64,000 nucleotides of DNA from Ammonifex sp. (GTDB lineage Bacteria > Bacillota > Desulfotomaculia > Desulfotomaculales > DYER01). Each line of letters opens with the position of its first letter. The first letter of the stretch is position 1. Location of the stretch: NCBI GenBank assembly GCA_020725605.1, contig DYER01000030.1, forward strand, positions 83 through 64,082. Reading direction: 5' to 3'. This document shows, in pieces, positions 2,883 through 56,320 of the stretch. The translations under genes were made by a program, and so were the position numbers. The notes under the pieces were generated by a model that searched no databases, was not told the DNA's origin, and saw nothing but the letters and a program-made list of their open reading frames with translations.

Positions 2883-2926
2883 GCTATTCCCCCCTCATGC
2901 GGTGCCGCGCCGGTTGCTCTCGCGGG

Positions 2927-3493
2927 TCACAGGGCCGCCTGGGCGCCGCCCAGCCAGCGCTGTACTTCCTCCAGCCCGCTCCTGGTCATGCGCCAGGTGT
3001 CGCCGTCGAGGGTGATCCATCCTTCGCTCTGGGCGCGCTTCAGGTACGTGGCCAGTGACTTCAACATGGTGCCCTCCCGCAGTTCTTCCTTGAGGAGCCG
3101 CCGCACGGAGACCGCGTCCGCCTGCTGTTTGCAGATCACGTCGAGGTAATAGACCGCAAACGTGGCCGTCTCCTTCTTACCGCGCAGCTTGATACGCCGC
3201 CGCAACTCAGCCGCCGTGGGGGGCGACCGATCGGGAGCGGGGACGGCCCGGGCTGCGGCCTCCGGCTCCCGCGACGGTAAGGGTACTGCCGGTCCCGGGA
3301 CCACCGGTACCGCCTCCGGGCCGGGCGCCACAGCCCCCAGGCTATCCTGAATTTCGCGCCGTTCCAGGTACTCCAGTAACTTCGTTTCGGCCGGGGTCAG
3401 GTGCTCCAGTAGCCTCAGCACGTCGCCGAATTCGCCCCGGAATTCCAGGCGGAAACCCACGTGGGTCATCTCGAGGAACAGTTCGCAGGCCAT
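2927..3493 (-). CDS. Hypothetical protein: small N-terminal domain, Pro/Ala-rich linker, C-terminal winged-helix-like domain
   Basis: In ORF 2927..3562 the internal ATG at 3493 is preceded by GGGAGGcaaatc. The product starts MACELFLEMTHVGF. Family not recognised. Confidence 0.55.
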   Translation of the reverse strand: MACELFLEMTHVGFRLEFRGEFGDVLRLLEHLTPAETKLLEYLERREIQDSLGAVAPGPEAVPVVPGPAVPLPSREPEAAARAVPAPDRSPPTAAELRRRIKLRGKKETATFAVYYLDVICKQQADAVSVRRLLKEELREGTMLKSLATYLKRAQSEGWITLDGDTWRMTRSGLEEVQRWLGGAQAAL

Positions 3494-3584
3494 GATTTGC
3501 CTCCCGTTTTGTTTAATTGGTTGAGTAGCCACATTATAGCAGAGACCCGCGGGGGCTGTCAATATGCTTTGTGTGATTGTCGCC

Positions 3585-3731
3585 TTAATTCGGGGACCTT
3601 TCGAGTAGCGCGCCCAGGCGGTTTATGGCGGCCGCCAGTTCGTCCAGCTTTTTCTCCATGCGCAGCAGCAGGTAAACTGCTACGACCATGGGGAAGCCGT
3701 AGTTCGAGATCGAAGTCAGCAGGGTCTCCAC
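3585..3731 (-). CDS. YvrJ-family small membrane protein (48 aa)
   Basis: Below the ORF-track size cut-off, found by manual translation: (M)ETLLTSISNYGFPMVVAVYLLLRMEKKLDELAAAINRLGALLERSPN. It matches the YvrJ pattern (..NyGFP..V..YLL.R.E.KL..L...I..L). The GTG start is 8 nt after GAGGAGG. Confidence 0.7.
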   Translation of the reverse strand: METLLTSISNYGFPMVVAVYLLLRMEKKLDELAAAINRLGALLERSPN

Positions 3732-3744
3732 CGCACGCACCTCC

Positions 3745-3990
3745 TCAATCTTCTCCTCCGGCCGTGCCGGGGACCGGCCGTCCGGAGGGCGGTCCCTCTT
3801 CCCGGACCAGGCCCGGTGTCTCCTGCGCCAGGGAGCCGAAGGCCGCGGCGCAGGTGCCGCACAGCTCCAGGTCGCCCAGCAGGGCCCGCCCGTCCATGAG
3901 CAACAGTTTGGCCGCCAGGTTGGCGGTCCGGTCGCAGCAGTCGCAGCGCCGGCGGCGGATTTCGAGATAGGGGATCATCTGCACGTGCAC
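3745..3990 (-). CDS. Small Cys-rich protein (CxCC ... CxxC, zinc-ribbon-like)
   Basis: Distal part of ORF 3745..4209. The GTG at 3990 lies 7 nt after GGGAGGTG. The product is (M)HVQMIPYLEIRRRRCDCCDRTANLAAKLLLMDGRALLGDLELCGTCAAAFG... Confidence 0.45.
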   Translation of the reverse strand: MHVQMIPYLEIRRRRCDCCDRTANLAAKLLLMDGRALLGDLELCGTCAAAFGSLAQETPGLVREEGPPSGRPVPGTAGGED

Positions 3991-4070
3991 GGGGCAACAC
4001 CTCCCTCGAATAAACGGAGTGGAGTGGGCCGCGCCAAACAAGAGCGGGCGTCCGCCCCCATCGGACTCCC

Positions 4071-4622
4071 TCAGTCTGCCAGGCCGGTGGCCCGGGCGAC
4101 GGCGCGGGCGAGGGTGTAAGCCAGCCCGGCGCGCACACACGGGTCCCTCAGCAAAGCGGCATCGGCGGCGTTGGTGATGAACAAGCACTCCAGCAGCACC
4201 GCCGGACACGCGGTGCGGCGGAGCACGTAGAAGTCGGCCCGGAGCCGGCCGCGGTCCGGCACGCCGTATTGCGCCAGATAAGAGGCCGCCGCGGCGTGAA
4301 CGGCGCTCCGGAAGGCGTGCGTGCAGGGCCGGGCCGCGGGATGGACGTAGCTCTCAAAGCCCCGGGCGTGCGGATTTTGTGCGGCGTTGCAGTGGATGCT
4401 CAGGTACAGGTCCGCGGCGCGCTCGTTGGCCAGGGCCACACGCGCGGCCAGGGGCACGTCCCGGTCATCCTCGCGGGTGAGGTACACGACCGCGCCGTAC
4501 CCGCCCAGGGCCCGGGCGGTCTCCAGGGCCAGCGCGAGGGTCAGGTCCGCCTCGCGCAGGTCCCCGCAGACCGCCCCGGGGTCGTTGCCCCCGTGTCCCG
4601 GGTCGATTACCACTCGCAGCAT
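4071..4622 (-). CDS. N-acetylmuramoyl-L-alanine amidase (Amidase_3 family)
   Basis: MLRVVIDPGHGGNDPGAV...LYLSIHCNA...GFESYVH...VLLECLFITN. The ATG at 4622 lies 8 nt after GAGGAGG. Confidence 0.85.
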   Translation of the reverse strand: MLRVVIDPGHGGNDPGAVCGDLREADLTLALALETARALGGYGAVVYLTREDDRDVPLAARVALANERAADLYLSIHCNAAQNPHARGFESYVHPAARPCTHAFRSAVHAAAASYLAQYGVPDRGRLRADFYVLRRTACPAVLLECLFITNAADAALLRDPCVRAGLAYTLARAVARATGLAD

Positions 4623-4640
4623 GGTTTCGGCCTCCTCTTC

Positions 4641-4708
4641 GACGGGGAGTTTTGCCACCCCACCGCTACCGAGAACCGGGTGGCTTTCCGAAGGTAAAAT
4701 TCCCCTTG
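4641..4708 (-). repeat. Inverted-repeat intergenic element, copy R1
   Basis: The minus strand reads CAAGGGGAATTTTACC-TTCGGAAAGCCACCCGGTTCTCGGTAGCGGTGGGGT-GGCAAAACTCCCCGTC. It ends 18 nt upstream of the amidase ATG. Confidence 0.85.
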
Positions 4709-4787
4709 GTTTGACGCCGTTTCGGCCGGCGTGGCGGGAAGCCCGCGCCGCGCCCCCGTCGGGCCGGCGCGGGCCCCGCCGCCCGGG

Positions 4788-5012
4788 CTACGTGACCTGC
4801 AGTTCGGTGACCTCGCGCGCCACGATGCGGGCCCCGGCGATGCCGGTCAGGTCCCCTCCGCTCGTGGTGAAGACGTTGCGGGCCAGAATGGTCTGCATGG
4901 CGCCCTGTACTTCGGCGGCCGTAACGTTGTCCCGCGGCTCCACCACCGCCAGCGTCACCCTCCGGCCCGCGGCGTTGGTGAACTGCATCTCCAGCCGTCT
5001 GGTGATGGCCAC
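4788..5012 (-). CDS. DUF2922-family small protein
   Basis: (M)AITRRLEMQFTNAAGRRVTLAVVEPRDNVTAAEVQGAMQTILARNVFTTSGGDLTGIAGARIVAREVTELQVT matches the DUF2922 pattern. The GTG at 5012 follows GGGGGTG. Confidence 0.75.
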   Translation of the reverse strand: MAITRRLEMQFTNAAGRRVTLAVVEPRDNVTAAEVQGAMQTILARNVFTTSGGDLTGIAGARIVAREVTELQVT

Positions 5013-5106
5013 TTCGGTCACACCCCCTTTCCTCGCGGGATGCGGGCGGCCGGCGCGCCGCCGGCTTTTACGGCCTGGTACCGGCACCGGCGGCGCGACG
5101 GCCTTC

Positions 5107-5174
5107 GACGAACAATCTTACCGACGTACCGGCACCGACGGTTGGATAGGTTTCCGAGGGAGAATTCCTTCGAC
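5107..5174 (-). repeat. Inverted-repeat intergenic element, copy R2 (decayed; tandem with R3)
   Basis: The minus strand reads GTCGAAGGAATTCTCCC-TCGGAAACCTATCCAACCGTCGGTGCCGGTACGTC-GGTAAGATTGTTCGTC. The core is conserved and the arms are degenerate. Confidence 0.65.
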
Positions 5175-5238
5175 GGAGAATTTTGCCGGCGTGCCGGTAC
5201 CCAAGGTGGGATGGCTTTCCGGGGCAAAATTCCCCGTC
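5172..5238 (-). repeat. Inverted-repeat intergenic element, copy R3
   Basis: The minus strand reads GACGGGGAATTTTGCC-CCGGAAAGCCATCCCACCTTGGGTACCGGCACGCC-GGCAAAATTCTCCGTC. It sits 1 nt downstream of the DUF1659 stop codon. Confidence 0.85.
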
Positions 5239-5239
5239 G

Positions 5240-5464
5240 TTACACCGCCGCCAGGGCCGCTTCGTTAACCCTGATGATCTGCACCGTGGGGTACCTGTGC
5301 AGGCCCGCCAGGGCCGCGGCCACGTCGAAGACCTCCTGGTCCGTCGCGGCCGGCTTCACCTGGTCGTAGTTGCGGCTCCGCAAGACCGGGTCGCCGCTGG
5401 CGTCGGTGCCGACCTGCACCCGCAGGCGGATGGTGGTTTCCAGGGGCGTCACCGCTACCGGCAC
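5240..5464 (-). CDS. DUF1659-family small protein
   Basis: ...TTIRLRVQVGTDASGDPVLRSRNYDQVKPAATDQEVFDVAAALAGLHRYPTVQIIRVNEAAL matches the DUF1659 pattern. The start is probably the GTG at 5464, 8 nt after GGGAGG. The ORF track starts at 5473. Confidence 0.75.
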   Translation of the reverse strand: MPVAVTPLETTIRLRVQVGTDASGDPVLRSRNYDQVKPAATDQEVFDVAAALAGLHRYPTVQIIRVNEAALAAV

Positions 5465-5696
5465 CGGGTTCACCTCCCTTCCACCCCGATTTTAGGCCCG
5501 GCGGCCCCGCCGCGGCAAAGGCCGTACCGCACGGGGTGCGGCACGCGCTCCCGGTCCGAACCGGGCCGCCGCCGGCCGGGCCCGGGCCTCGGACCCGCAC
5601 CGGGGGTGCGGCCGCCGGAGGGTACCGGGTGCGGCGGCCGGTCCGGGGGCGGACCGCCGGGGTCCGGACGCCGTACCCCTGTGGAAACGGAAAAAC

Positions 5697-5760
5697 GACC
5701 GGGAACTTGCCCCCGCTGGCACCGAGAACCGATGGGCCTTCCGAGGGCAAATTTTCCGTC
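5697..5760 (-). repeat. Inverted-repeat intergenic element, copy R4
   Basis: The minus strand reads GACGGAAAATTTGCCC-TCGGAAGGCCCATCGGTTCTCGGTGCCAGCGGG-GGCAAGTTCCCGGTC. Confidence 0.75.
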
Positions 5761-5793
5761 GAAAGAATCCCCGCCGGCACCCGGCACGGACAA

Positions 5794-5876: not shown

Positions 5877-7469
5877 TTACCGCGACTCGGCCCGGATCTC
5901 CCCGGCCAGGGCTTTCTTGTCGATCTTGCCCAGGGGGGTCAGCGGCAGGGCCTCCCGGAAGACGTACTGCCTGGGAATTTTGTAGTCGGCCAGCCGTTCG
6001 CTTAAAAAGGCCTTCAGTTCGGCCTCGTCCACGGTCGTGCCGGGCCGGCACACGACGTAGGCCCGGCCCACCTCGCCCAGCACGGGGTCCGGCACGCCAA
6101 GGCAGGCGGCCATCAGCACCGCCGGGTGCCGTGTCAGGGCGTCCTCGATTTCCGCGGGGTAGACGTTGTAGCCGCCGGTGATGTACATTTCCTTGAGCCG
6201 GCCCACCAGTCTGAGGTAGCCCCGCCCGTCCAGCACTCCCAGGTCCCCGGTGTAGAACCAGCCTTCCGGGTCCACGGCCTGCGCCGTCTCTTCGGGGAGG
6301 CGCAGGTACTCCTTCATTACGAACTCGCCCCGCAGGGCGATCTCGCCTACCTCTCCCGGGGGCAGCTCCCGCCGGTCCGGGCCCACGATCTTGAGTTCGA
6401 ACTCGGGGGCTATTTTGCCCACCGTGGCGAAGACGGTTTCGACGTCGTCTCCCGGGGCCGTGTAGGTGGCGAACCCGGCCACTTCGGTCATGCCGTAGCC
6501 GGTGCGCACGTCCGCGCAGATGCGGAACATGCCCTCGATGACCTCCCGGGTGGGCGGGGCCCCCGAAACCACGACCAACCGGACGCTCGACAGGTCGAAT
6601 TCCCCGAAGTTCGGCAGGGAGAATTCGAGGGCGAACATGGTCGGCACCTGGCCCAGGACCGTGACACGCTCCCGGGCCACCATCTCCAGGGTTTTCACCG
6701 GGTGGAAGGAGGGCAGGGCCACCAGCGTGGCCTTGCCCATGATGGCGGCGAAGGAAAGCTCGGTGGCGCCGCCCACGTGGTTCACCGGCAGGTGAAACAT
6801 GATGCGGTCCCGCGGCCCGATGTCCCACTGGCGGGTCTCGGCCAGGATGTTGGTGATGATGTTGCGGTGGGTCAGCACCGCGCCCTTGGGCCGGCCCGTG
6901 GTGCCGGAGGTGTAGACCACCAGCACGCCGTCGTCGGTGCTCACGGTGGCCTCGGCCTCCCGCAGCGGGGCGTCCTCCGTACCGGCGCCCTTCTTCAGGG
7001 CCTCGTCGAGGCCCACCGCGCCCGGCACCGCGGCTTCCTCACCGCAGACCAGCAGGGTCTCCAGGCCGGGGCACCTGCCTGCCAGTTCGGTCCCGACCTT
7101 CTGCCAGTCCACGCCGCCCGGGGAGCCCGCCAGGGCCAGCACCCGCGGCCGGGAGTTGTCGAGGATGTACTCCAGCTCCGGCCTGGTGTAGCGGGGATTG
7201 AGGCCCACCAGCAGGGCGCCGATCCTGGCCCCGGCCATGTAGGTGTAGAGGAATTCGGGCCCGGGCGGAAAAAGGTAGGCGATGGTGTCGCCCCGGCGTA
7301 CGCCGGCCGTAAGGAAGAACTTGGCGAGGTGGGTCACCTTTTCCCAGGCTTCGCCGTAGGTGATGCGGTAGCCCTCGCCCACGATGAGTTCCCTGTGCGG
7401 AGCGGCCTCCGCCGCCTCGCGGAGGTAGTCCGAAAGCAGGCGGAGCTTTTTATCGGTGCGCGTCAGCAC
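5877..7469 (-). CDS. AMP-dependent acyl-CoA synthetase/ligase (fatty-acid-CoA ligase family)
   Basis: 530 aa. AMP-binding motif YTSGTTGRPKGAVLTHRN, plus ...GYGMTE... and a C-terminal ...PLTPLGKIDKKAL. Confidence 0.9.
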   Translation of the reverse strand: MLTRTDKKLRLLSDYLREAAEAAPHRELIVGEGYRITYGEAWEKVTHLAKFFLTAGVRRGDTIAYLFPPGPEFLYTYMAGARIGALLVGLNPRYTRPELEYILDNSRPRVLALAGSPGGVDWQKVGTELAGRCPGLETLLVCGEEAAVPGAVGLDEALKKGAGTEDAPLREAEATVSTDDGVLVVYTSGTTGRPKGAVLTHRNIITNILAETRQWDIGPRDRIMFHLPVNHVGGATELSFAAIMGKATLVALPSFHPVKTLEMVARERVTVLGQVPTMFALEFSLPNFGEFDLSSVRLVVVSGAPPTREVIEGMFRICADVRTGYGMTEVAGFATYTAPGDDVETVFATVGKIAPEFELKIVGPDRRELPPGEVGEIALRGEFVMKEYLRLPEETAQAVDPEGWFYTGDLGVLDGRGYLRLVGRLKEMYITGGYNVYPAEIEDALTRHPAVLMAACLGVPDPVLGEVGRAYVVCRPGTTVDEAELKAFLSERLADYKIPRQYVFREALPLTPLGKIDKKALAGEIRAESR

Positions 7470-9469: not shown

Positions 9470-10204
9470 TCATCCGGCCCCGCCCACGAAATCGGCGTAG
9501 GCCCGGGCCACCTCGGCCGCGGGCCCCTGGAGGCGCACCTCGCCCCGGTCCAGCCAGAGGGCGTGGTCGCAGAGCTCTGCGACCTGTTTGGGGGCGTGGG
9601 TGACGAAGACGATGGTCGTGCCGCGCTCCTTGAACTCGCGGATCTTCTTGAGGCACTTCTCCTGGAAGGGGAGGTCGCCCACGGCCAGGACCTCGTCGAT
9701 GAGCAGGATGTCCGGGTCCACGTGCACGGCCACGGCGAAGCCCAGGCGCATGTACATGCCCGAGGAGTAGTTGCGCACCGGGTTGTCGATGAAGTCGCCC
9801 AGCTCGGCGAAATCGATGATTTTCTCCAGGCGGCCGTTGATCTCGCGCCGGGTGAGGCCCAGGATGGAGGCGTTGAGGTAGATGTTCTCCCGGCCGGTGA
9901 AGTCCGGGTGGAAGCCCGCGCCCAGCTCCAGGAGGGTGGAGACGCGGCCGTGCACCCGCACGCGGCCGCGGTTGGGGTAGAGGATGCGGCTGATGATTTT
10001 CAAAAGGGTGCTCTTGCCCGAGCCGTTGCGGCCGATGAGGCCCACGGTGGCGCCGCGGGGCACGCTGAGGCTCACGCCCTTCAGGGCCCAGAAGTCCTCG
10101 GCCTTCTGGCGGTACGGGAAGATGAAACGCTCCTTCAGGCTGTAAACCCGGTCGTGGTAGATGCGGAACTTCTTCCAGACGTCGACGACCTCGATGGCGT
10201 CCAC
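9470..10204 (-). CDS. Polysaccharide/teichoic-acid-type ABC exporter, ATP-binding protein (TagH/Wzt-like)
   Basis: 244 aa. Walker A GRNGSGKST, signature YSSGMYMRL, Walker B ILLIDE. Confidence 0.9.
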   Translation of the reverse strand: MDAIEVVDVWKKFRIYHDRVYSLKERFIFPYRQKAEDFWALKGVSLSVPRGATVGLIGRNGSGKSTLLKIISRILYPNRGRVRVHGRVSTLLELGAGFHPDFTGRENIYLNASILGLTRREINGRLEKIIDFAELGDFIDNPVRNYSSGMYMRLGFAVAVHVDPDILLIDEVLAVGDLPFQEKCLKKIREFKERGTTIVFVTHAPKQVAELCDHALWLDRGEVRLQGPAAEVARAYADFVGGAG

Positions 10205-11168: not shown

Positions 11169-12143
11169 TCACCCACCGCCGCGGGCCCTGCGCAGTTCCT
11201 CGATGAGCAGGGGCAGCACCGCCCGCAGGTCCCCCACGATGCCCACGTCGGCCACCTCGAAGATGGGGGCGCCTGCGTTCTGGTCCACGGCGAAGATGAC
11301 CCCGGAACCCAGGAAGCCGGTGGTGAAGTGCATGGCGCCCGAGGCCCCGAGGCTCACGAAGAGCCTGGGGCTCACGGTCCTGCCGCTCTGGCCGATCATG
11401 AGTTCTTCGGGAATCCAGCCGCGGTCCACGGCCGGCCTGGTGCCGCCCACGGCCGCCCCCAGGAGGCGGGCCAGCTCCCAAACGGGTTCGAACCCGCCCG
11501 CGGCGTGGAGGCCCCACCCGCCGGCCACCACCACCTCCGCCGCCTCCAGACTGACGCCCGCGGGCTCCTCCTCCGCCATCTCCAGGGTGCGGGCGCGCAG
11601 CGATTCCTCCCGTAAGTCGCAGGGGACGCGCACCAGCTCGCCCCTGCGGCCGGAGTCCCCCTGGGGCACGGGGAAGACCCCGGGCTTGACCGTGGCCATC
11701 TGGGGGTTCCGGAGGCAGACGTATTCCCAGAGGGTACCCCGGCCCAGACCCGGCACCACCTGCACCAGGCGCCCTTCTTCGTTAACGTAAAGGTCCACGC
11801 AGTGGGCCGTGAGCCCGGTGCCCAGTCTGGCCGCCACCCGGGCCGCCAGCTCCCGGCCCAGGGTGGTGGCCCCCAGGAGAATGACTTCGGGGCCGTGTTC
11901 CCCGGCCAGCCGGGCCAGCAGGTCCGCGCAGGCGTCGCTCTGGTAAAGGCGCAGCAAAGGGTGGTCCACCAGGTAGACCTTCTCCGCCCCGTGGGCGAAG
12001 AGCTCCCCGGCCGCCTCCTCCACCCCGTGGCCCAGGAGCACCGCGGCCGGTACGGCCCCGAGGGCCGGGGCCAGTTCGCGGGCCTTGCCCAGGAGTTCCA
12101 GGGACACCGGCAGCAGCCGGCCCCGCCTCTGTTCGGCCCACAC
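11169..12143 (-). CDS. etfA: Electron transfer flavoprotein, alpha subunit
   Basis: ETF alpha FAD-binding C-terminus (...AVGGTRPAVDRGWIPEELMIGQSGRTVSPRLFVSLGASGAMHFTTG...). The start is reassigned to the GTG at 12143, 6 nt after GGAG. The ORF-track N-terminus (to 12239) translates repeat R5. Confidence 0.9.
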   Translation of the reverse strand: MWAEQRRGRLLPVSLELLGKARELAPALGAVPAAVLLGHGVEEAAGELFAHGAEKVYLVDHPLLRLYQSDACADLLARLAGEHGPEVILLGATTLGRELAARVAARLGTGLTAHCVDLYVNEEGRLVQVVPGLGRGTLWEYVCLRNPQMATVKPGVFPVPQGDSGRRGELVRVPCDLREESLRARTLEMAEEEPAGVSLEAAEVVVAGGWGLHAAGGFEPVWELARLLGAAVGGTRPAVDRGWIPEELMIGQSGRTVSPRLFVSLGASGAMHFTTGFLGSGVIFAVDQNAGAPIFEVADVGIVGDLRAVLPLLIEELRRARGGG

Positions 12144-12153
12144 CCACAGCTCC

Positions 12154-12221
12154 GACGGGGAATTTTGCCTTCGGAAGGCAATCCGGTTGCCGGCACCGGT
12201 GGGTTGGCAAAATTTCCCGTC
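12154..12221 (+). repeat. Inverted-repeat intergenic element, copy R5
   Basis: GACGGGGAATTTTGCC-TTCGGAAGGCAATCCGGTTGCCGGCACCGGTGGGTT-GGCAAAATTTCCCGTC. It fills the etfB-etfA spacer. Confidence 0.9.
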
Positions 12222-12235
12222 GTCTCGCGCCACGC

Positions 12236-17237: not shown

Positions 17238-17255
17238 TCCGGCACCCCCGTCTTC

Positions 17256-17320
17256 GACGCGGAATTTTGCCGCGGAAGGCTATTCGGTCCTCGGCAGCGA
17301 TGTTGGCAAAATTCCCCGCC
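17256..17320 (+). repeat. Inverted-repeat intergenic element, copy R6
   Basis: GACGCGGAATTTTGCC-GCGGAAGGCTATTCGGTCCTCGGCAGCGATGTT-GGCAAAATTCCCCGCC. It lies between the aldolase stop (17328) and the mtaD start (17237). Confidence 0.85.
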
Positions 17321-17327
17321 GGTCTCG

Positions 17328-19278: not shown

Positions 19279-19430
19279 CGCTCTGTCAAAACCTCCTCAA
19301 TGAGTGTGGCCTGGGAATTCTCTGCCGATGCCAAAACCCGCCCGCACCTCGCGCGCGGGTGCCGGCGCCCGGGTCTGCCTCACGGCTCGGGGCTCCGCGG
19401 GGGCCGCCGCGGCCCCCCGATGCCGGGTCC

Positions 19431-32164: not shown

Positions 32165-33238
32165 TTACGGCGGGGAATCTTGTCCCGGTAATTCGTTTTG
32201 GCCCCCGGCCGGCGCCACGCCGGCGGCGCGCCCCCGGGCTTCCGGCAGCCAGCGCACCAGCGCGCCGCCCCAGGTCAGCCCGGTGCCGAAGGCCACCATC
32301 ACCACGTAGTCCCCCGGCCGGATGTAGCCCCCGTCCAGGGCTTCCTTCAGGGCCACCGGAATGGAGGCCGCAGACGTGTTGCCGTACCGGTCCAGATTGA
32401 CGAAAACCCGGTCCATACCCAGTCCCAGGCGTTTGGCGGCGGCCTCGATGATGCGCAGGTTGGCCTGGTGCGGTATCAGGCAGCCGACCCGGTCCGGGCC
32501 GACGCCCGCTTTCCTGAGCACCTCCAGGGCCACCTCCCCCATGACCCGCACGGCAAACTTGAAGATTTCGCGTCCCTGCATGTGAATGGTGTGCAGCCTG
32601 CGGTCCACGGTCTCGTGGCTGGCCGGGAGCCTGGACCCGCCCGCAGGAAGGGTGAGCAGGGGCCCGCCGGAGCCGTCGGCCCGCAGGGAGAAGGACAGCA
32701 CCCCGTAGCCCTCCGGCACCGGCTCCAGAACCACGGCCCCGGCGGCGTCGCCGAAAAGAATGCAGGTGCCCCGGTCCTCCCAGTTGACCATTTTGGAAAG
32801 GCTGTCCGCCCCCGCCACCAGTACCTTTTCTGCGGCGCCGGTCATGATGAACTGGCTGCCGATGGACAGGGCGTAAATGAACCCCGTGCAGCCCGCGGAA
32901 ACGTCGAAGGCCCCGGCCCGGCGGGCCCCCAGGGCGTCCTGCACCAGGCAGGCGGTGGCGGGAAAAAACATGTCCGGGCTGTTGGTGGCCACGATCACCA
33001 GGTCCAGATCCTCGGGAGCCACCCCGGCCTGCGCCAGGGCCTCCCGGGCCGCGGCCAGGGCCAGGTCCGAACTCGCCTGTTCCGGGGCCGCGATGCGCCG
33101 CTCCCGGATCCCCGTGCGTTCGACGATCCACTCGTTGCTCGTCTCAACCATCCGCTCCAGGTCCTCGTTGGTCAGAACGCGCTGCGGAGCGTAAGCGCCC
33201 ACGCCCACAATGCCCGCGTAACGCAAGGTCTCAGGCAT
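32165..33238 (-). CDS. fabH: 3-oxoacyl-[ACP] synthase III
   Basis: ...GIVGVGAYAPQRVLTNEDL...SAGCTGFIYAL...HQANLRI...GNTSAASIP... Confidence 0.9.
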   Translation of the reverse strand: MPETLRYAGIVGVGAYAPQRVLTNEDLERMVETSNEWIVERTGIRERRIAAPEQASSDLALAAAREALAQAGVAPEDLDLVIVATNSPDMFFPATACLVQDALGARRAGAFDVSAGCTGFIYALSIGSQFIMTGAAEKVLVAGADSLSKMVNWEDRGTCILFGDAAGAVVLEPVPEGYGVLSFSLRADGSGGPLLTLPAGGSRLPASHETVDRRLHTIHMQGREIFKFAVRVMGEVALEVLRKAGVGPDRVGCLIPHQANLRIIEAAAKRLGLGMDRVFVNLDRYGNTSAASIPVALKEALDGGYIRPGDYVVMVAFGTGLTWGGALVRWLPEARGRAAGVAPAGGQNELPGQDSPP

Positions 33239-53000: not shown

Positions 53001-53435
53001 GGGGCGGCCGTCGGCTTCCATGTTGCCGTACCTGCCGAGGCTCCGGCCCAGGCGCTCGGCGGCCGCGAGGTCCGGCAACAGCACGAGGTGGTGGACCTTG
53101 CGCACCCGTCCGCCTTTCTTGTAGATGGTGCTGACCTCGCCGGTGACCACGAAGCGCACCAGCGGCCGGCCGTCGGGCTCCACGGGGCCGGGCCAGTGGG
53201 CCACCGGAGGCCGGCGCAGGTCTTCGGGCTCCTTCTTGAGGCGGTATAGCCCCCCTTCCGCCTCGGCAAGCCCGTCCCGCAGTTCTTCCCGCCAGGCCGG
53301 GTGGGTGCAGTCGCCCGTGCCCACCAGGCTCACGCCCTTGTACACGGCCCAGCGGTAGTAATTTTCCGGCGTGGCGTCCCGGCTGGTGGCCCGGGAGTAG
53401 CGGGAATGGACGTGCAGGTCCGCGACGTACTCCAT
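50091..53435 (-). CDS. Fusion protein: N-terminal endonuclease Q-like PHP domain with zinc finger, plus C-terminal UvrD/PcrA-type superfamily 1 helicase
   Basis: 1114 aa. The N-terminus ADLHVHSRYSRATS...GTGDCTHPAW...FFPEEGKYHYDGHRAC...CPVCGRRVTVGVLHRVEELAD is an EndoQ/TIGR00375-like pattern. From about aa 480: LNREQWAAV...VIAGPGTGKTRTLVYRIAHL...TFTNRAAEE...DEFQD...TLHAAKGLEF...LFYVGLTRA. Confidence 0.85.
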   Translation of the reverse strand: MEYVADLHVHSRYSRATSRDATPENYYRWAVYKGVSLVGTGDCTHPAWREELRDGLAEAEGGLYRLKKEPEDLRRPPVAHWPGPVEPDGRPLVRFVVTGEVSTIYKKGGRVRKVHHLVLLPDLAAAERLGRSLGRYGNMEADGRPVLGLDSRDLLALVLETAPEALLVPAHVWTPHFSLFGANSGFDAAEECFEDLTAHVTALETGLSSDPPMNWRLSALDRFLLVSNSDAHSPRNLAREANLLDTPLTYPDLYLALRGASGGLVGTLEFFPEEGKYHYDGHRACRVRWRPAETLKNGGLCPVCGRRVTVGVLHRVEELADRAPGARPAGARPFESLVPLPEVIADALGVGPNSRQVLRTYFSLLQRLGPELFVLRSAPLEEVARLAGSLVAEALRRMRAGEIELLPGFDGEYGKIVLIRPEERSLFGEQTRFFAVTGPVPGEKESAGEVGPAGGRVRPVGMPARPEAPAPFSEPLNREQWAAVRATEGPVIVIAGPGTGKTRTLVYRIAHLVGERGVPPREITAVTFTNRAAEEVRRRAGEILAGAADPGDLTVGTFHGLCLDLLRRARSPERLTVLDEVDAREVLAEALREAGRPPREAARWQQVLSLYKSRGLGPEDPGVPPDLRPLYLAYLEKLASYRALDYDDLLLEAAALVEADPASGPVREFLCRCTHLLVDEFQDVNPVQYRLVRLWARRPENLFVIGDPDQAIYGFRGADHRLFRRLKEDFPQAKVCRLRVNYRSTPTILRAARALAADPGDLTAVREDGAQVVHLEAPGETAEGIAVAREISGLVGGTSMLTAGQDGGRWGFADIAVLFRTGRQAALLEECLLKEGIPYRVVGREGFLEERPVREVLNFLRCVADPEDDWHALLCLGGDRFRLGPRGLALVREEAGRRGGVWRAASALASSAALDPADREKLAAFVAEVEAYRRLAAAEPPERLLARVVEQGESGAAESMRRLLRLAARFGNLASFLRGLVLAQEADWERPGAGGPTPEAVSLMTLHAAKGLEFPVVFITGVEDGLLPLRDAEDPDEERRLFYVGLTRARDLLILTSARTRTLRGTRVRTGPSAFLRYLPPDCLQRKGWAGPGGKKKGGSEGRPGHEQLQLFEF

Positions 53436-53511
53436 GACTTTTCCCCCGCGCCTTTCTCCTCTTAAATTCTACCGCACCGGCGGACTCCCCTGCATTTTCA
53501 CCGTGCACCTA

Positions 53512-53520
53512 TGGTATAAT
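53512..53520 (+). promoter_or_regulatory. Candidate extended -10 promoter element for the radical SAM gene
   Basis: TGgTATAAT at 53512-53520. The -35 is weak (TGCATT, 18 nt upstream). Confidence 0.35.
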
Positions 53521-53586
53521 CTTGGTGGGCGCGGGGCCGGCAGGTCGGTCGCCCCGCGTAAGGGCCGCCGCCAAGGGGGGAGCAAC

Positions 53587-54570
53587 GTGGGCTTCAACGG
53601 GGAATTTCGCCTTCGGAAAGCTACCCGGTCCCCGGCATCGGGGGGTGGGCACAATGCCCCGCCGTTCGTACCCGCCTACCGCCGCCTGGCCCGGGAAGAG
53701 CTGGCGCGCCGTGCGCAGGAAGCCCTGACGGGCCTGAAGGAGTGCCGCGTGTGCCCCCACCGCTGCGGCGTGGACCGCACCGCCGGGGAGAAGGGATTCT
53801 GCAAGGCCGGGGCCCGGGCCCTGGTGAGCAGCTACGGCCCCCACTTCGGGGAGGAGGCGCCCCTGGTCGGCCTGCACGGCTCGGGCACCATCTTCTTCGG
53901 CCTCTGCAACATGCGCTGCATCTACTGCCAGAACTACCAGCTGAGCTGGGGCGGCGAGGGGGATCCCGTGACGGCCGAGGAACTGGCCCGCATGATGCTC
54001 TGGCTGCAGAAAATCGGCTGTCACAACATCAATTTCGTTTCCCCCACTCACTTCGTACCCCAGATCCTTGAAGGCCTCGTCGTGGCCGCGGAACGGGGTC
54101 TGGAGCTACCCCTGGTGTACAACTGCGGCGGCTACGAGGCCCCGGAAACCCTGGCCCTGCTGGACGGCATCATCGACATCTACATGCCGGACCTGAAGTA
54201 CGCGGATGCCGAGACCGCCCGCAGGTACTCGGGCGTGCGCGACTACCCGGCGGTGGCCAAGGCCGCCATCAAGGAAATGCAGCGCCAGGTGGGGGACCTG
54301 ACCTTCGACGAAAACGGCATCGCCCTCAGGGGCCTGCTGGTCCGACACCTGGTGCTTCCGGGGGGCCTGGCAGGTACGGACGAACTCATGGAGTTCCTGG
54401 CCCGCGAAGTGTCCCCGGATTGCTTCGTGAACGTGATGGCCCAGTACCACCCCTGCCTGCACGCCTGGGAGAACCCGCCCCTGGACCGCCGCCCCACCCC
54501 GGCCGAATACCGCGCCGCCGTGGCCGCGGCCCGGGACCGGGGCCTGAGGGTGTACCGCAACGGGCTTTAG
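53587..54570 (+). CDS. Radical SAM protein (COG1313/PflX-like putative activating enzyme)
   Basis: CNMRCIYCQN (CxxxCxxC). The conserved family N-terminus begins at FVPAYRRLAREEL...CRVCPHRCGVDR. The only in-frame canonical start upstream of it is the GTG at 53587, after GGGGGGAG, so repeat R8 would be translated. Confidence 0.8.
   Translation: MGFNGEFRLRKATRSPASGGGHNAPPFVPAYRRLAREELARRAQEALTGLKECRVCPHRCGVDRTAGEKGFCKAGARALVSSYGPHFGEEAPLVGLHGSGTIFFGLCNMRCIYCQNYQLSWGGEGDPVTAEELARMMLWLQKIGCHNINFVSPTHFVPQILEGLVVAAERGLELPLVYNCGGYEAPETLALLDGIIDIYMPDLKYADAETARRYSGVRDYPAVAKAAIKEMQRQVGDLTFDENGIALRGLLVRHLVLPGGLAGTDELMEFLAREVSPDCFVNVMAQYHPCLHAWENPPLDRRPTPAEYRAAVAAARDRGLRVYRNGL
53596..53666 (+). repeat. 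Inverted-repeat element, copy R8 (diverged), inside the predicted 5' end of the radical SAM CDS
   Basis: AACGGGGAATTTCGCC-TTCGGAAAGCTACCCGGTCCCCGGCATCGGGGGGTG-GGCACAATGCCCCGCCGTT. Confidence 0.7.
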
Positions 54571-54766: not shown

Positions 54767-56320
54767 TCAGGCCAGCCGGAACCTGGCCACCAATTTTTCC
54801 AGATCGCCGGCCAGTCCGGCCAGATCCCGAGCCGTGGCGGAAACCTTTTCTACAGTTGCCGTCTGCTCTTCGGCCGTCGCGGTCACATTTTGCACCGCCG
54901 CGGATATCTCCTCGGCCGAGGCGGCCACGGACTGGATATTGTCCGCCAGACTCTGAACAGAGCCAATGATTTCCGCAAAGGTGGCCCCGGCTTCCTTTAC
55001 CAGGCGTGCCCCGGCTTCCACCTGGGCCGCGTTCTGCTCGACACCCCGGAGGGCCTTCTGAGACTCCGCCTGGACGGCCGCGATGAGGGCCTGGATCTCT
55101 TTACCCGCTTGCGCCGACTGCTCGGCCAGCTTTCTGACCTCTTCGGCCACGACGGCAAAGCCCTTGCCGTGCTCTCCCGCCCGGGCGGCCTCGATGGCGG
55201 CGTTCAGGGCCAGCAGGTTCGTCTGGTCCGCAATGTGGGTAATGAGATCGACAATCTGGGTGATCTTCCCGCTGGCCTCGAGGAGCCCGTTGACGATCTG
55301 GCCCGCCGCCACGGCCACCTGTTGTATCTGGTCCATCTGTGCCAGGACATCCTGCAGGGCCTGGCTCCCTTTTCTGGCCAGCTGACCCGCCCTTTCGGAT
55401 TCGCCGGCGATGTGCTGGGTATTTGAAGCGACCTGTTCCACCGTGGCGGCCACTTCCCCGATGGTGGAGGCCGTCTCGTTGGCCCCGATGCTGACGTTTT
55501 CGGCGCTGGATGAGAGTTCGGCGGCACTGGAGGTTAGGAACCGGGACTTTTCCGCCAGCTGTCCGATAATCTCTTTCAGGTTGCGCACCATGGTATTAAA
55601 GGCCGCTCCCAACTGGCCGATCTCGTTTTTCGCCGTGACGGAAATCTGGCCGGTGAGGTCCCCGGAAGCGATCCGCGAGGCTTCCGCGGCGAGGGCCCTT
55701 ACCGGCCCGACGATTCCCCGCAGCAAGAGCAAGCAGATGGCCAGGCACGCGAGGACCGTCACGACGCCCGCAACCACCAGGAAATTCCGTAGCCTTACGG
55801 CATGAGCCGCGTCCTCTAAAGTCTCCCGGTGGACCCCCTCCGTCTTTCCTTCCACGTAATTGGTTACAATGGTCTGAAGCTGATTCCTCAGATCGGAGTA
55901 CTCACCCTTGTAAATGGCCACCGCTTCCTCGGGATTGGTACCGGCCTTCTCCATTATTTGGGCTTCCAGCTCGCAAAGGCGCACATTCAGCCTGTCGACG
56001 CGATCGAAGGTTTCCTTGCCGGCCGGGTCCAGCTCCTTCATCCTTTTGATGGTCCTGTCGATTTTGTCGGCGTATTCATTGTACCTCTGCCGCTCGTTTT
56101 GGTCTGAGGGGTCGATAATTATCCCCCGCACGGCATCGGTGAGGGTCAAATCCTGGAACTTAATCTCCTTCGCCGTAGCCAGTATTTCGATGTCTCTGGC
56201 CGCTATTTCAGAAAGCCTCTTACTCACGTGCGCCAGCTCCAGAACGGAAAGCCCCACGGCGAAGGCCAGCAACAGTACGACCAGCCCCATGCCAAGCTGC
56301 AGCCCGTAACGTTTCAGCAT
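54767..56320 (-). CDS. Methyl-accepting chemotaxis protein (4HB sensor, HAMP, MA domain)
   Basis: 517 aa with an N-terminal TM segment, a HAMP region and the conserved signalling hairpin ...[31 protein letters not shown]... Confidence 0.9.

Follow-up and report, generated by a model that had tools for sequence, protein, structure and literature searches.

A family of short inverted-repeat elements, probably mobile, in the DUF1659/DUF2922/amidase spacers of an uncultured Ammonifex-like bacterium

Correia/NEMIS of Neisseria, ERIC/IRU of enterobacteria and RUP of Streptococcus pneumoniae are examples of bacterial MITEs (short for miniature inverted-repeat transposable elements). The repeats described here, located in a 64-kb stretch of DNA of an Ammonifex sp. 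(contig DYER01000030.1; the whole stretch of 64,000 nucleotides is called the window) and accumulated in the spacers of a gene row encoding DUF1659, DUF2922 and amidase proteins, resemble such elements in being short, non-coding, bounded by inverted repeats, flanked by a target duplication and intergenic, often inside operons, with a long hairpin possible in transcripts and insertion polymorphism between strains. Unlike most bacterial MITEs, they measure 66-70 bp instead of about 100-300 bp, duplicate any dinucleotide and not TA, form systematic head-to-tail arrays and reside in a high-GC uncultured relative of Desulfovirgula/Ammonifex. Most probably, what is repeated here is a non-autonomous DNA transposon, a MITE with a 2-bp target duplication, which has recurrently landed at this locus and is served by a transposase in trans; the family is new, of a well-known kind of element.

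Among insertion sequences, IS30 generates 2-bp duplications and passes through an intermediate whose inverted-repeat ends, left and right, adjoin with 2 bp between them, while its end-targeted insertions exclusively give left-end-to-right-end (head-to-tail) junctions, which are described as reactive intermediates (PMC9333248). A 2-bp duplication has been called typical of IS30-family members (PMC5821093). The present elements share with IS30 a target duplication of 2 bp whose sequence is not fixed (PMC9333248; PMC5821093) and also head-to-tail abutted ends exactly 2 bp apart, a strong orientation specificity and insertion beside resident ends. On the other hand, the element is a 68-bp unit without a transposase gene, bounded by perfect 17-bp inverted repeats, neither an IS30-family gene nor a full-length parent with these repeats was found in the searched DNA, and, in contrast to the reactive intermediates of IS30, about 20 head-to-tail junctions persist in genomes among about 100 copies.

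Copies, target duplication and insertion polymorphism

Seven hand-collected copies served to build a covariance model, which, run on the window, gave eight strong matches and nothing else convincing; a weak ninth match at 55643-55713, within a chemotaxis-receptor gene and not element-like, was rejected. Four of the eight copies do occupy the DUF1659/DUF2922/amidase spacers, as the original prediction had it: four matches fall inside 4636-5765 and share the minus strand with the genes, and the other four lie on the plus strand at 12150, 17252, 26225 and 53592 (model coordinates). A 22-nt core motif occurs five times in comparison to 0.03 expected. With boundaries taken directly from the sequence, the predicted places of the copies stand and their exact ends move by 1-6 nt. 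The putative MITE copies, with a remnant and a tentative fragment, are as follows (scores and E values from the covariance model):

5696..5761, minus strand: copy A, 66 nt, flanks tt/tt, 64.6 bits, E 4.5e-17
5171..5239, minus strand: copy B, 69 nt, intact, flanks aa/aa, 81.5 bits, E 3.9e-22
5106..5168, minus strand: copy C, 63 nt, decayed and 5'-truncated tandem partner of B, flanks aa/aa, 40.0 bits, E 1.1e-9
4640..4709, minus strand: copy D, 70 nt, flanks aa/aa, 85.2 bits, E 2.9e-23
12153..12222, plus strand: copy E, 90.1 bits
17254..17322, plus strand: copy in a 90-nt spacer, 54.4 bits
26228..26297, plus strand: copy F, flanks aa/aa, 93.4 bits
53595..53664, plus strand: copy G, flanks tt/tt, 81.4 bits, in a divergent intergenic region
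32183..32240, minus strand: decayed remnant with right arm gggacaagattccccgccg
5077..5103, minus strand: perhaps part of a third tandem unit (ccgtcg...ggtgccggtacc), tentative

Outside the window, a DUF1659 homology search provided three related loci and one metagenome pattern scan 51 loci, and an nhmmer census of the latter yielded about 100 non-redundant copies; the alignment used below (A4) comprises 83 copies. The consensus unit of ~68 bp (copies 63-70 bp) consists of CGACGGGGAATTTTGCC, an interior of about 34 nt and GGCAAAATTCCCCGTCG. The two 17-bp arms are perfect terminal inverted repeats in the consensus, and 93.7% of the 1407 arm cells in the 83 copies are paired, while the interior is asymmetric and has no coding capacity.

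At 35 of 67 non-redundant sites the 2-nt flanks are the same on both sides, compared with 7.4 on average and at most 17 in 5000 permutations, while 3-nt flanks are identical at just 6 of 67; no other register or length shows such an excess, the other registers being at background. By this flank-identity test a 3-bp duplication around an element starting with GACGG was rejected in favour of 2 bp around an element starting with CGACGG. The flanking dinucleotide columns also carry the highest mutual information in the 83-copy alignment. The duplicated dinucleotide can be any sequence, and all focal copies possess matching flanks (tt|A|tt, aa|B|aa|C|aa and aa|D|aa).

Insertion polymorphism is observed between close relatives. 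Contigs of 96-98% identity to the window (L052, L042) share with it the copies at 12153 and 17254. Three L052 copies occupy sites that are empty in the window, at about 19299, 18030 and 15938, the first of which reads:

19299..19300: empty site in the window, filled in L052 by a copy at 4382-4451, flanks 96-98% identical

A perfect dimer in L042, 97% identical, is located at the site of the window remnant 32183-32240. Anatomy, 2-bp duplication and presence or absence in relatives of 96-98% identity together argue that the element is a MITE.

Spacers and arrays at the DUF1659/DUF2922/amidase locus

The gene row on the minus strand, in a window of 68% G+C, was assigned by Pfam. In the direction of transcription it reads:

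7469..5877, minus strand: AMP-dependent ligase gene (Pfam)
5240..5473, minus strand: DUF1659 gene, likely start GTG 5464 (PF07872, E 4e-22)
4788..5021, minus strand: DUF2922 gene, start GTG 5021 or 5012 (PF11148, E 1e-25)
4071..4622, minus strand: N-acetylmuramoyl-L-alanine amidase gene (Amidase_3, cell-wall hydrolase; PF01520, E 2e-44)
between the Amidase_3 and YvrJ genes, minus strand: 82-aa open reading frame (ORF)
3740..3585, minus strand: YvrJ gene (Pfam)

Copy A is located downstream of the ligase terminator (5819-5802 plus T-run) and upstream of the best promoter-like site of DUF1659 (5518-5489). The left 'aa' flank of B is formed by the final two bases of the DUF1659 TAA stop codon, and B begins directly after it. 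Copy C is matched by the model at positions 13-64 only, lacks the first 6 nt of the left arm and has five mismatches in the right arm. Copy D, likewise decayed, with four mismatches in its stem, ends 2 nt before the Shine-Dalgarno sequence GAGGAGG of the amidase gene and 18 nt before its ATG. The tandem pair in the DUF1659-DUF2922 spacer, described earlier as abutting with 3 nt shared, is real as a pair and shares no nucleotides; B and C are split by the dinucleotide 'aa' (5170-5169).

The DUF1659-DUF2922 spacer, 218 nt to GTG 5021 and 227 nt to GTG 5012, had been proposed to be an insertion product, and the relatives bear this out. In the close relative L004/L054 (DUF1659 95% identical), B' stands alone in a spacer of 134 nt and C is absent, and in the distant relative L006/L007 (51%), the only clean outgroup compared, the spacer of 65 nt is without the element. 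When B, C and their flanks are subtracted, 82 nt of the window spacer remain, and 55 nt if the tentative third fragment goes as well; subtraction of B' from the L004 spacer leaves 63 nt. As these 55-82 nt are near the 65 nt of the distant relative, the long spacer can be understood as a product of insertion. A tblastn search of DUF1659 against plasmids for typical spacers gave no match.

L004/L054 also carries a copy A' upstream of DUF1659 and a copy D' upstream of the amidase gene. An extra copy X is placed exactly after the DUF2922 stop codon, with tag-cc|X|cc-gggcgg as compared to the empty window site tag-ccc-gggcgg, and a further copy Y follows the amidase gene where the window is empty, so that the window and this relative differ in the presence of C, X and Y. 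The BLAST alignment of the window with L004 skips 5166-5077, of which the 27-nt stretch 5103..5077 is window-specific and could be what is left of a third unit in the tandem, its resemblance to the interior of C having been judged by eye.

More distant relatives have been hit differently. The DUF1659-DUF2922 spacers of L005 and L019 (about 84% and 80%) are 185 and 161 nt long and seemingly element-free, which would have spoken against insertion as the cause of spacer length, yet they hold an antisense left-half remnant next to the ribosome-binding site of DUF2922 (small search, E 4e-4 and 2e-5). Their DUF2922-amidase spacers carry antisense copies. The longest array seen, four head-to-tail antisense copies at 2415-2675 of L019, lies in a DUF2922-amidase spacer of 413 nt.

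In three related lineages, then, the operon spacers received repeated, independent insertions, which differ in position and occur in either orientation. The proposal of an insertion hotspot is upheld by the independent insertions in L054, L005 and L019 and by the dimer being a standard product of the family. In the window itself, 5.9% of the non-MITE intergenic DNA holds three of the seven independent insertions (P about 0.006 by a binomial test, with B and C counted as one event and genes called with our own self-trained codon log-odds caller). Shine-Dalgarno motifs at the insertion flanks are not significantly enriched (17 of 104, background about 13). IS30-family elements favour palindromic hot spots or sequences like their own inverted-repeat ends; here the outward flanks are only slightly shifted toward similarity with the repeat tips, being G-rich at positions 8-9.

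Head-to-tail arrangement with exactly 2 nt between the tips is found in 12 of the 17 adjacent pairs with recognisable arms. Three further pairs are head-to-tail with 1 or 3 nt, the two 3-nt cases reflecting 1-nt indels in the arms, and a single pair is head-to-head, with 12 nt between. Trimers occur in L029 and a four-unit array in L019. Sister copies, that is, mutual nearest relatives, are joined in 7 of 15 dimers, B-C among them, and unrelated family members in the other eight, which indicates two processes, local duplication and the landing of another copy beside a resident end. The nearest relative of C among the 83 copies is B, with an interior identity of 0.75. As C differs from B by ~25% whereas B differs from its L004 ortholog (2994-3062) at 3 of 69 positions, the B-C dimer is old, and C has probably been lost in the L004 lineage, which has B alone.

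Mobilisation and rival explanations

In the proposed mechanism, a transposase provided in trans would cut with a 2-bp stagger, leaving the duplicated dinucleotide around each copy, and the element would insert or duplicate locally beside an existing end to give head-to-tail dimers, trimers and tetramers with 2 nt between tips. The DUF1659-DUF2922-amidase spacers would represent a recurrent landing zone, in which B inserted directly after the DUF1659 stop codon, to be joined later by C, probably a local duplicate of B that then decayed, while D would have inserted beside the amidase ribosome-binding site and A between the terminator of the upstream gene and the promoter region of DUF1659. By analogy in behaviour, the likeliest mobilising enzyme would be of the IS30 type (HTH + DDE), using copy-out-paste-in and targeting inverted-repeat ends, a plausible assignment that we nevertheless place slightly on the doubtful side. 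The local pile-up would accordingly reflect target preference, local hopping and tolerance to insertion rather than a selected function. Such a pile-up is typical transposon behaviour and leaves the understanding of how such systems work unchanged.

Several results weigh against a transposon of this kind. A transposase gene bounded by these inverted repeats was present neither in the window nor in ~400 kb of related contigs, tblastn with InsI of E. coli IS30 against all fetched DNA gave a best E value of 1.3, no non-syntenic multicopy ORFs were found in related contigs, and an inverted-repeat scan of viral contigs revealed no parent element. A perfect duplication is absent at about half of the sites, which is tentatively put down to decay, and 1-2-nt indels are present at the junction in two of three filled/empty comparisons. 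Furthermore, the arms hold 16 cells with double, pair-preserving changes, compared with 4.0 +/- 1.9 in shuffles and reached in 0 of 500 of them; this is unexpected for a plain double-stranded-DNA transposon, and the hairpin itself could matter. The repeated independent acquisition of copies in the same operon could likewise be read as convergent selection. In a scan of the loci for solo repeats, every 'solo' arm turned out to belong to a short or decayed copy, and no longer element was found.

The double changes lie in columns 4-20 with 61-78 of the A4 alignment, examples being CGACCGGG/CCCGGTCG, CAACGGGG/CCCCGTTG and CGATGGGG/CCCCATCG. Possible explanations are sub-families that track variant transposases, conversion between the ends, or a real hairpin constraint.

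A wider interpretation, which we regard as rather doubtful as a whole, is that of an undescribed and very small MITE family, so far confined to an uncultured high-GC Desulfovirgula/Ammonifex-like lineage, whose head-to-tail arrays with 2-bp spacing are fossil end-to-end junctions of IS30-type copy-out-paste-in, whose compensatory excess in the arms hints at a hairpin constraint (DNA or RNA) and whose arrays in the sporulation spacers could be functional. If true, the fossil junctions would be natural genome-scale evidence of inverted-repeat end targeting. An exact-pattern scan of GTDB representative genomes gave only three chance matches, in unrelated phyla, and the DUF1659 protein of the window has no record in an exact-protein index. 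Metagenome contigs of 96-99% identity exist (Ga0080004 and others; SRR5247122), and the lineage seems to be known only from metagenomes. The RibBA protein encoded in the window is 84% identical to that of Desulfovirgula, ~80% to Desulfallas, Ammonifex and Peptococcaceae proteins and 99% to a JGI metagenome protein, which places the host as an uncultured relative, of high G+C, of these spore formers among the Firmicutes.

Among the alternatives, the best surviving, though unlikely, is that the copies were retained or recruited as intercistronic RNA hairpins which stabilise the upstream mRNA, block 3' exonucleases or attenuate read-through and so uncouple the expression of DUF1659, DUF2922 and the amidase. 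The four copies at the locus all have sense orientation, B directly follows a stop codon and D directly precedes a ribosome-binding site, the same spacers gained copies independently in three lineages, and some arm changes are compensatory. Copies A and B fold strongly as RNA (-32.2 kcal/mol, z -3.1, and -39.5 kcal/mol, z -5.4, relative to shuffled sequence), but C has no stable fold (z +0.96) and D (-24.3 kcal/mol, z -0.13), like C, folds no better than shuffled sequence. The common orientation with transcription, which had been noted earlier, holds locally and is lost across the family, with 20 antisense and 13 sense copies between co-directional genes. Position and orientation of copies also vary among relatives (antisense in L005/L019, extra or missing in L054), and presence is polymorphic at 96-98% identity. 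On the mRNA-sense strand, stem mismatches comprise 12 G-U and 12 A-C, and these equal counts give no sign that pairing is protected at the RNA level. Copy A, moreover, is located outside the likely DUF1659 transcript. A T-run (TTTTT) follows directly after A only, whereas B, C and D are followed by aa and G-rich sequence and do not qualify as intrinsic terminators. The earlier suggestion of selection for strong hairpins between these cistrons finds little support, and no sign of a selected regulatory hairpin is seen at these spacers, although the copies may still affect expression. An outward promoter starting from the conserved TTGGCA in the right arm was also considered and rejected, as no -10 box was seen by eye at the right spacing.

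Somewhat less likely still is that replication slippage, or unequal recombination of neighbouring repeats, produced B-C and the remaining dimers, with no end-targeted insertion by a transposase. The seven dimers of sister copies, B-C included, would fit such an origin, and the same dinucleotide at all three B-C junctions (aa|B|aa|C|aa) is what tandem duplication of a unit plus spacer gives. Local duplication is, on the other hand, unable to yield the eight dimers of clearly unrelated members, the spacing is exactly 2 nt at 12 of 17 junctions whichever copies are joined, and slippage requires a pre-existing direct repeat longer than 2 nt.

Movement as single-stranded hairpins, as CGTC-tagged palindromes of the repetitive extragenic palindrome (REP) type, by a REP-associated tyrosine transposase (RAYT) or another HUH tyrosine transposase is very improbable. 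Published CGTC-tagged REPs have stems of 8-9 bp, loops of 4-5 nt and an unpaired tag at one end, in units of 20-40 bp whose dimers are mainly head-to-head, with head-to-tail dimers negligible (PMC3733652). The present elements resemble REPs and bacterial interspersed mosaic elements (BIMEs) as intergenic palindromes that are sometimes clustered, with a CGTC-like tetranucleotide at the tips (CGAC.../...GTCG contain CGTC), and their compensatory arm changes would suit such a hairpin. They depart from CGTC REPs by a 17-bp stem, an interior of ~34 nt, a CGTC placed inside the paired arms at both ends and a predominance of head-to-tail dimers, so that stem, loop, tag and dimer features all disagree and the explanation is largely refuted. 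A further difference is the 2-bp target duplication of the present elements. HUH-type single-strand transposition is not known to yield a target duplication.

In the least credible alternative, the element would be a structured RNA acting in cis on gene regulation, similar to a riboswitch or leader and peculiar to the DUF1659/DUF2922/YvrJ sporulation cluster. This reading has the concentration of four sense-oriented copies in this cluster in its favour, and is contradicted by an Rfam 15 scan of the window with 0 matches at gathering score, by RNAalifold on 7 and 83 copies, which recovered the terminal stem alone and no covarying interior helix, by antisense copies in the etfB-etfA spacer and beside unrelated housekeeping genes, and by polymorphism between near-identical genomes.

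For annotation, a mobile origin of the repeats means that masking as mobile DNA is the appropriate treatment of these 68-bp hairpins, which should not be taken for terminators, small RNAs or regulatory leaders of DUF1659/DUF2922. With about 100 copies, the persisting junctions and several filled/empty pairs, the family provides a clean natural data set on a 2-bp-duplicating element that seeds tandem arrays beside its own ends, and illustrates, in an uncultured thermophile-like Firmicute, the widening of operon spacers by MITEs and the marking of rearrangement breakpoints by them.

Other copies and neighbouring features

Copy E is located antisense in the 92-nt spacer between etfB and etfA (ETF domains were found) and has an orthologous copy in L052 at 11678-11747. 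It fills nearly all of this spacer (12144-12235), which places a strong hairpin inside a housekeeping operon, also in the relative of 97% identity. The copy at 17254..17322, likewise antisense, fills the 90-nt spacer between two minus-strand genes and is also present in L052. Copy F, the best match to the consensus, is antisense to its neighbouring genes. Copy G stands beside a gene for a UvrD-like helicase and within the longest ORF of its plus-strand neighbour (ATG 53434; region 53434-53670), and the true start of that neighbour is therefore probably downstream of the element.

A 2.65-kb block of the window from DUF1659 to a 211-aa gene (2905-5550) is missing in the near-identical relative L050 (2400-3000), where the ligase gene is followed by a dimer of the element with part of the DUF1659 leader and then directly by a 208-aa gene. 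The block is found elsewhere (L004 2430-2760; L054), after a HicAB pair and preceded by the element and the same ~200-nt leader, and its identity to the window drops along its length from 95% to 80%. This looks like rearrangement or recombination with the repeat of element plus leader at the left breakpoint.

In the lower-GC distant relative L006, a different, near-perfect palindrome of ~90 nt (9650-9750), with the core GGGAAAATTTTCC / GGAAAAAATTCCC, lies between the amidase and DUF1659 genes and could represent a terminator or a further hairpin element in a comparable position. In the window, a perfect match to a sigma-70-type promoter (TTGACA, 18 nt, TATAAT, with TG) is present on the minus strand at 3533-3562, where the longest ORF of the 211-aa gene (2927..3562) begins; the true start of this gene is therefore probably further downstream.

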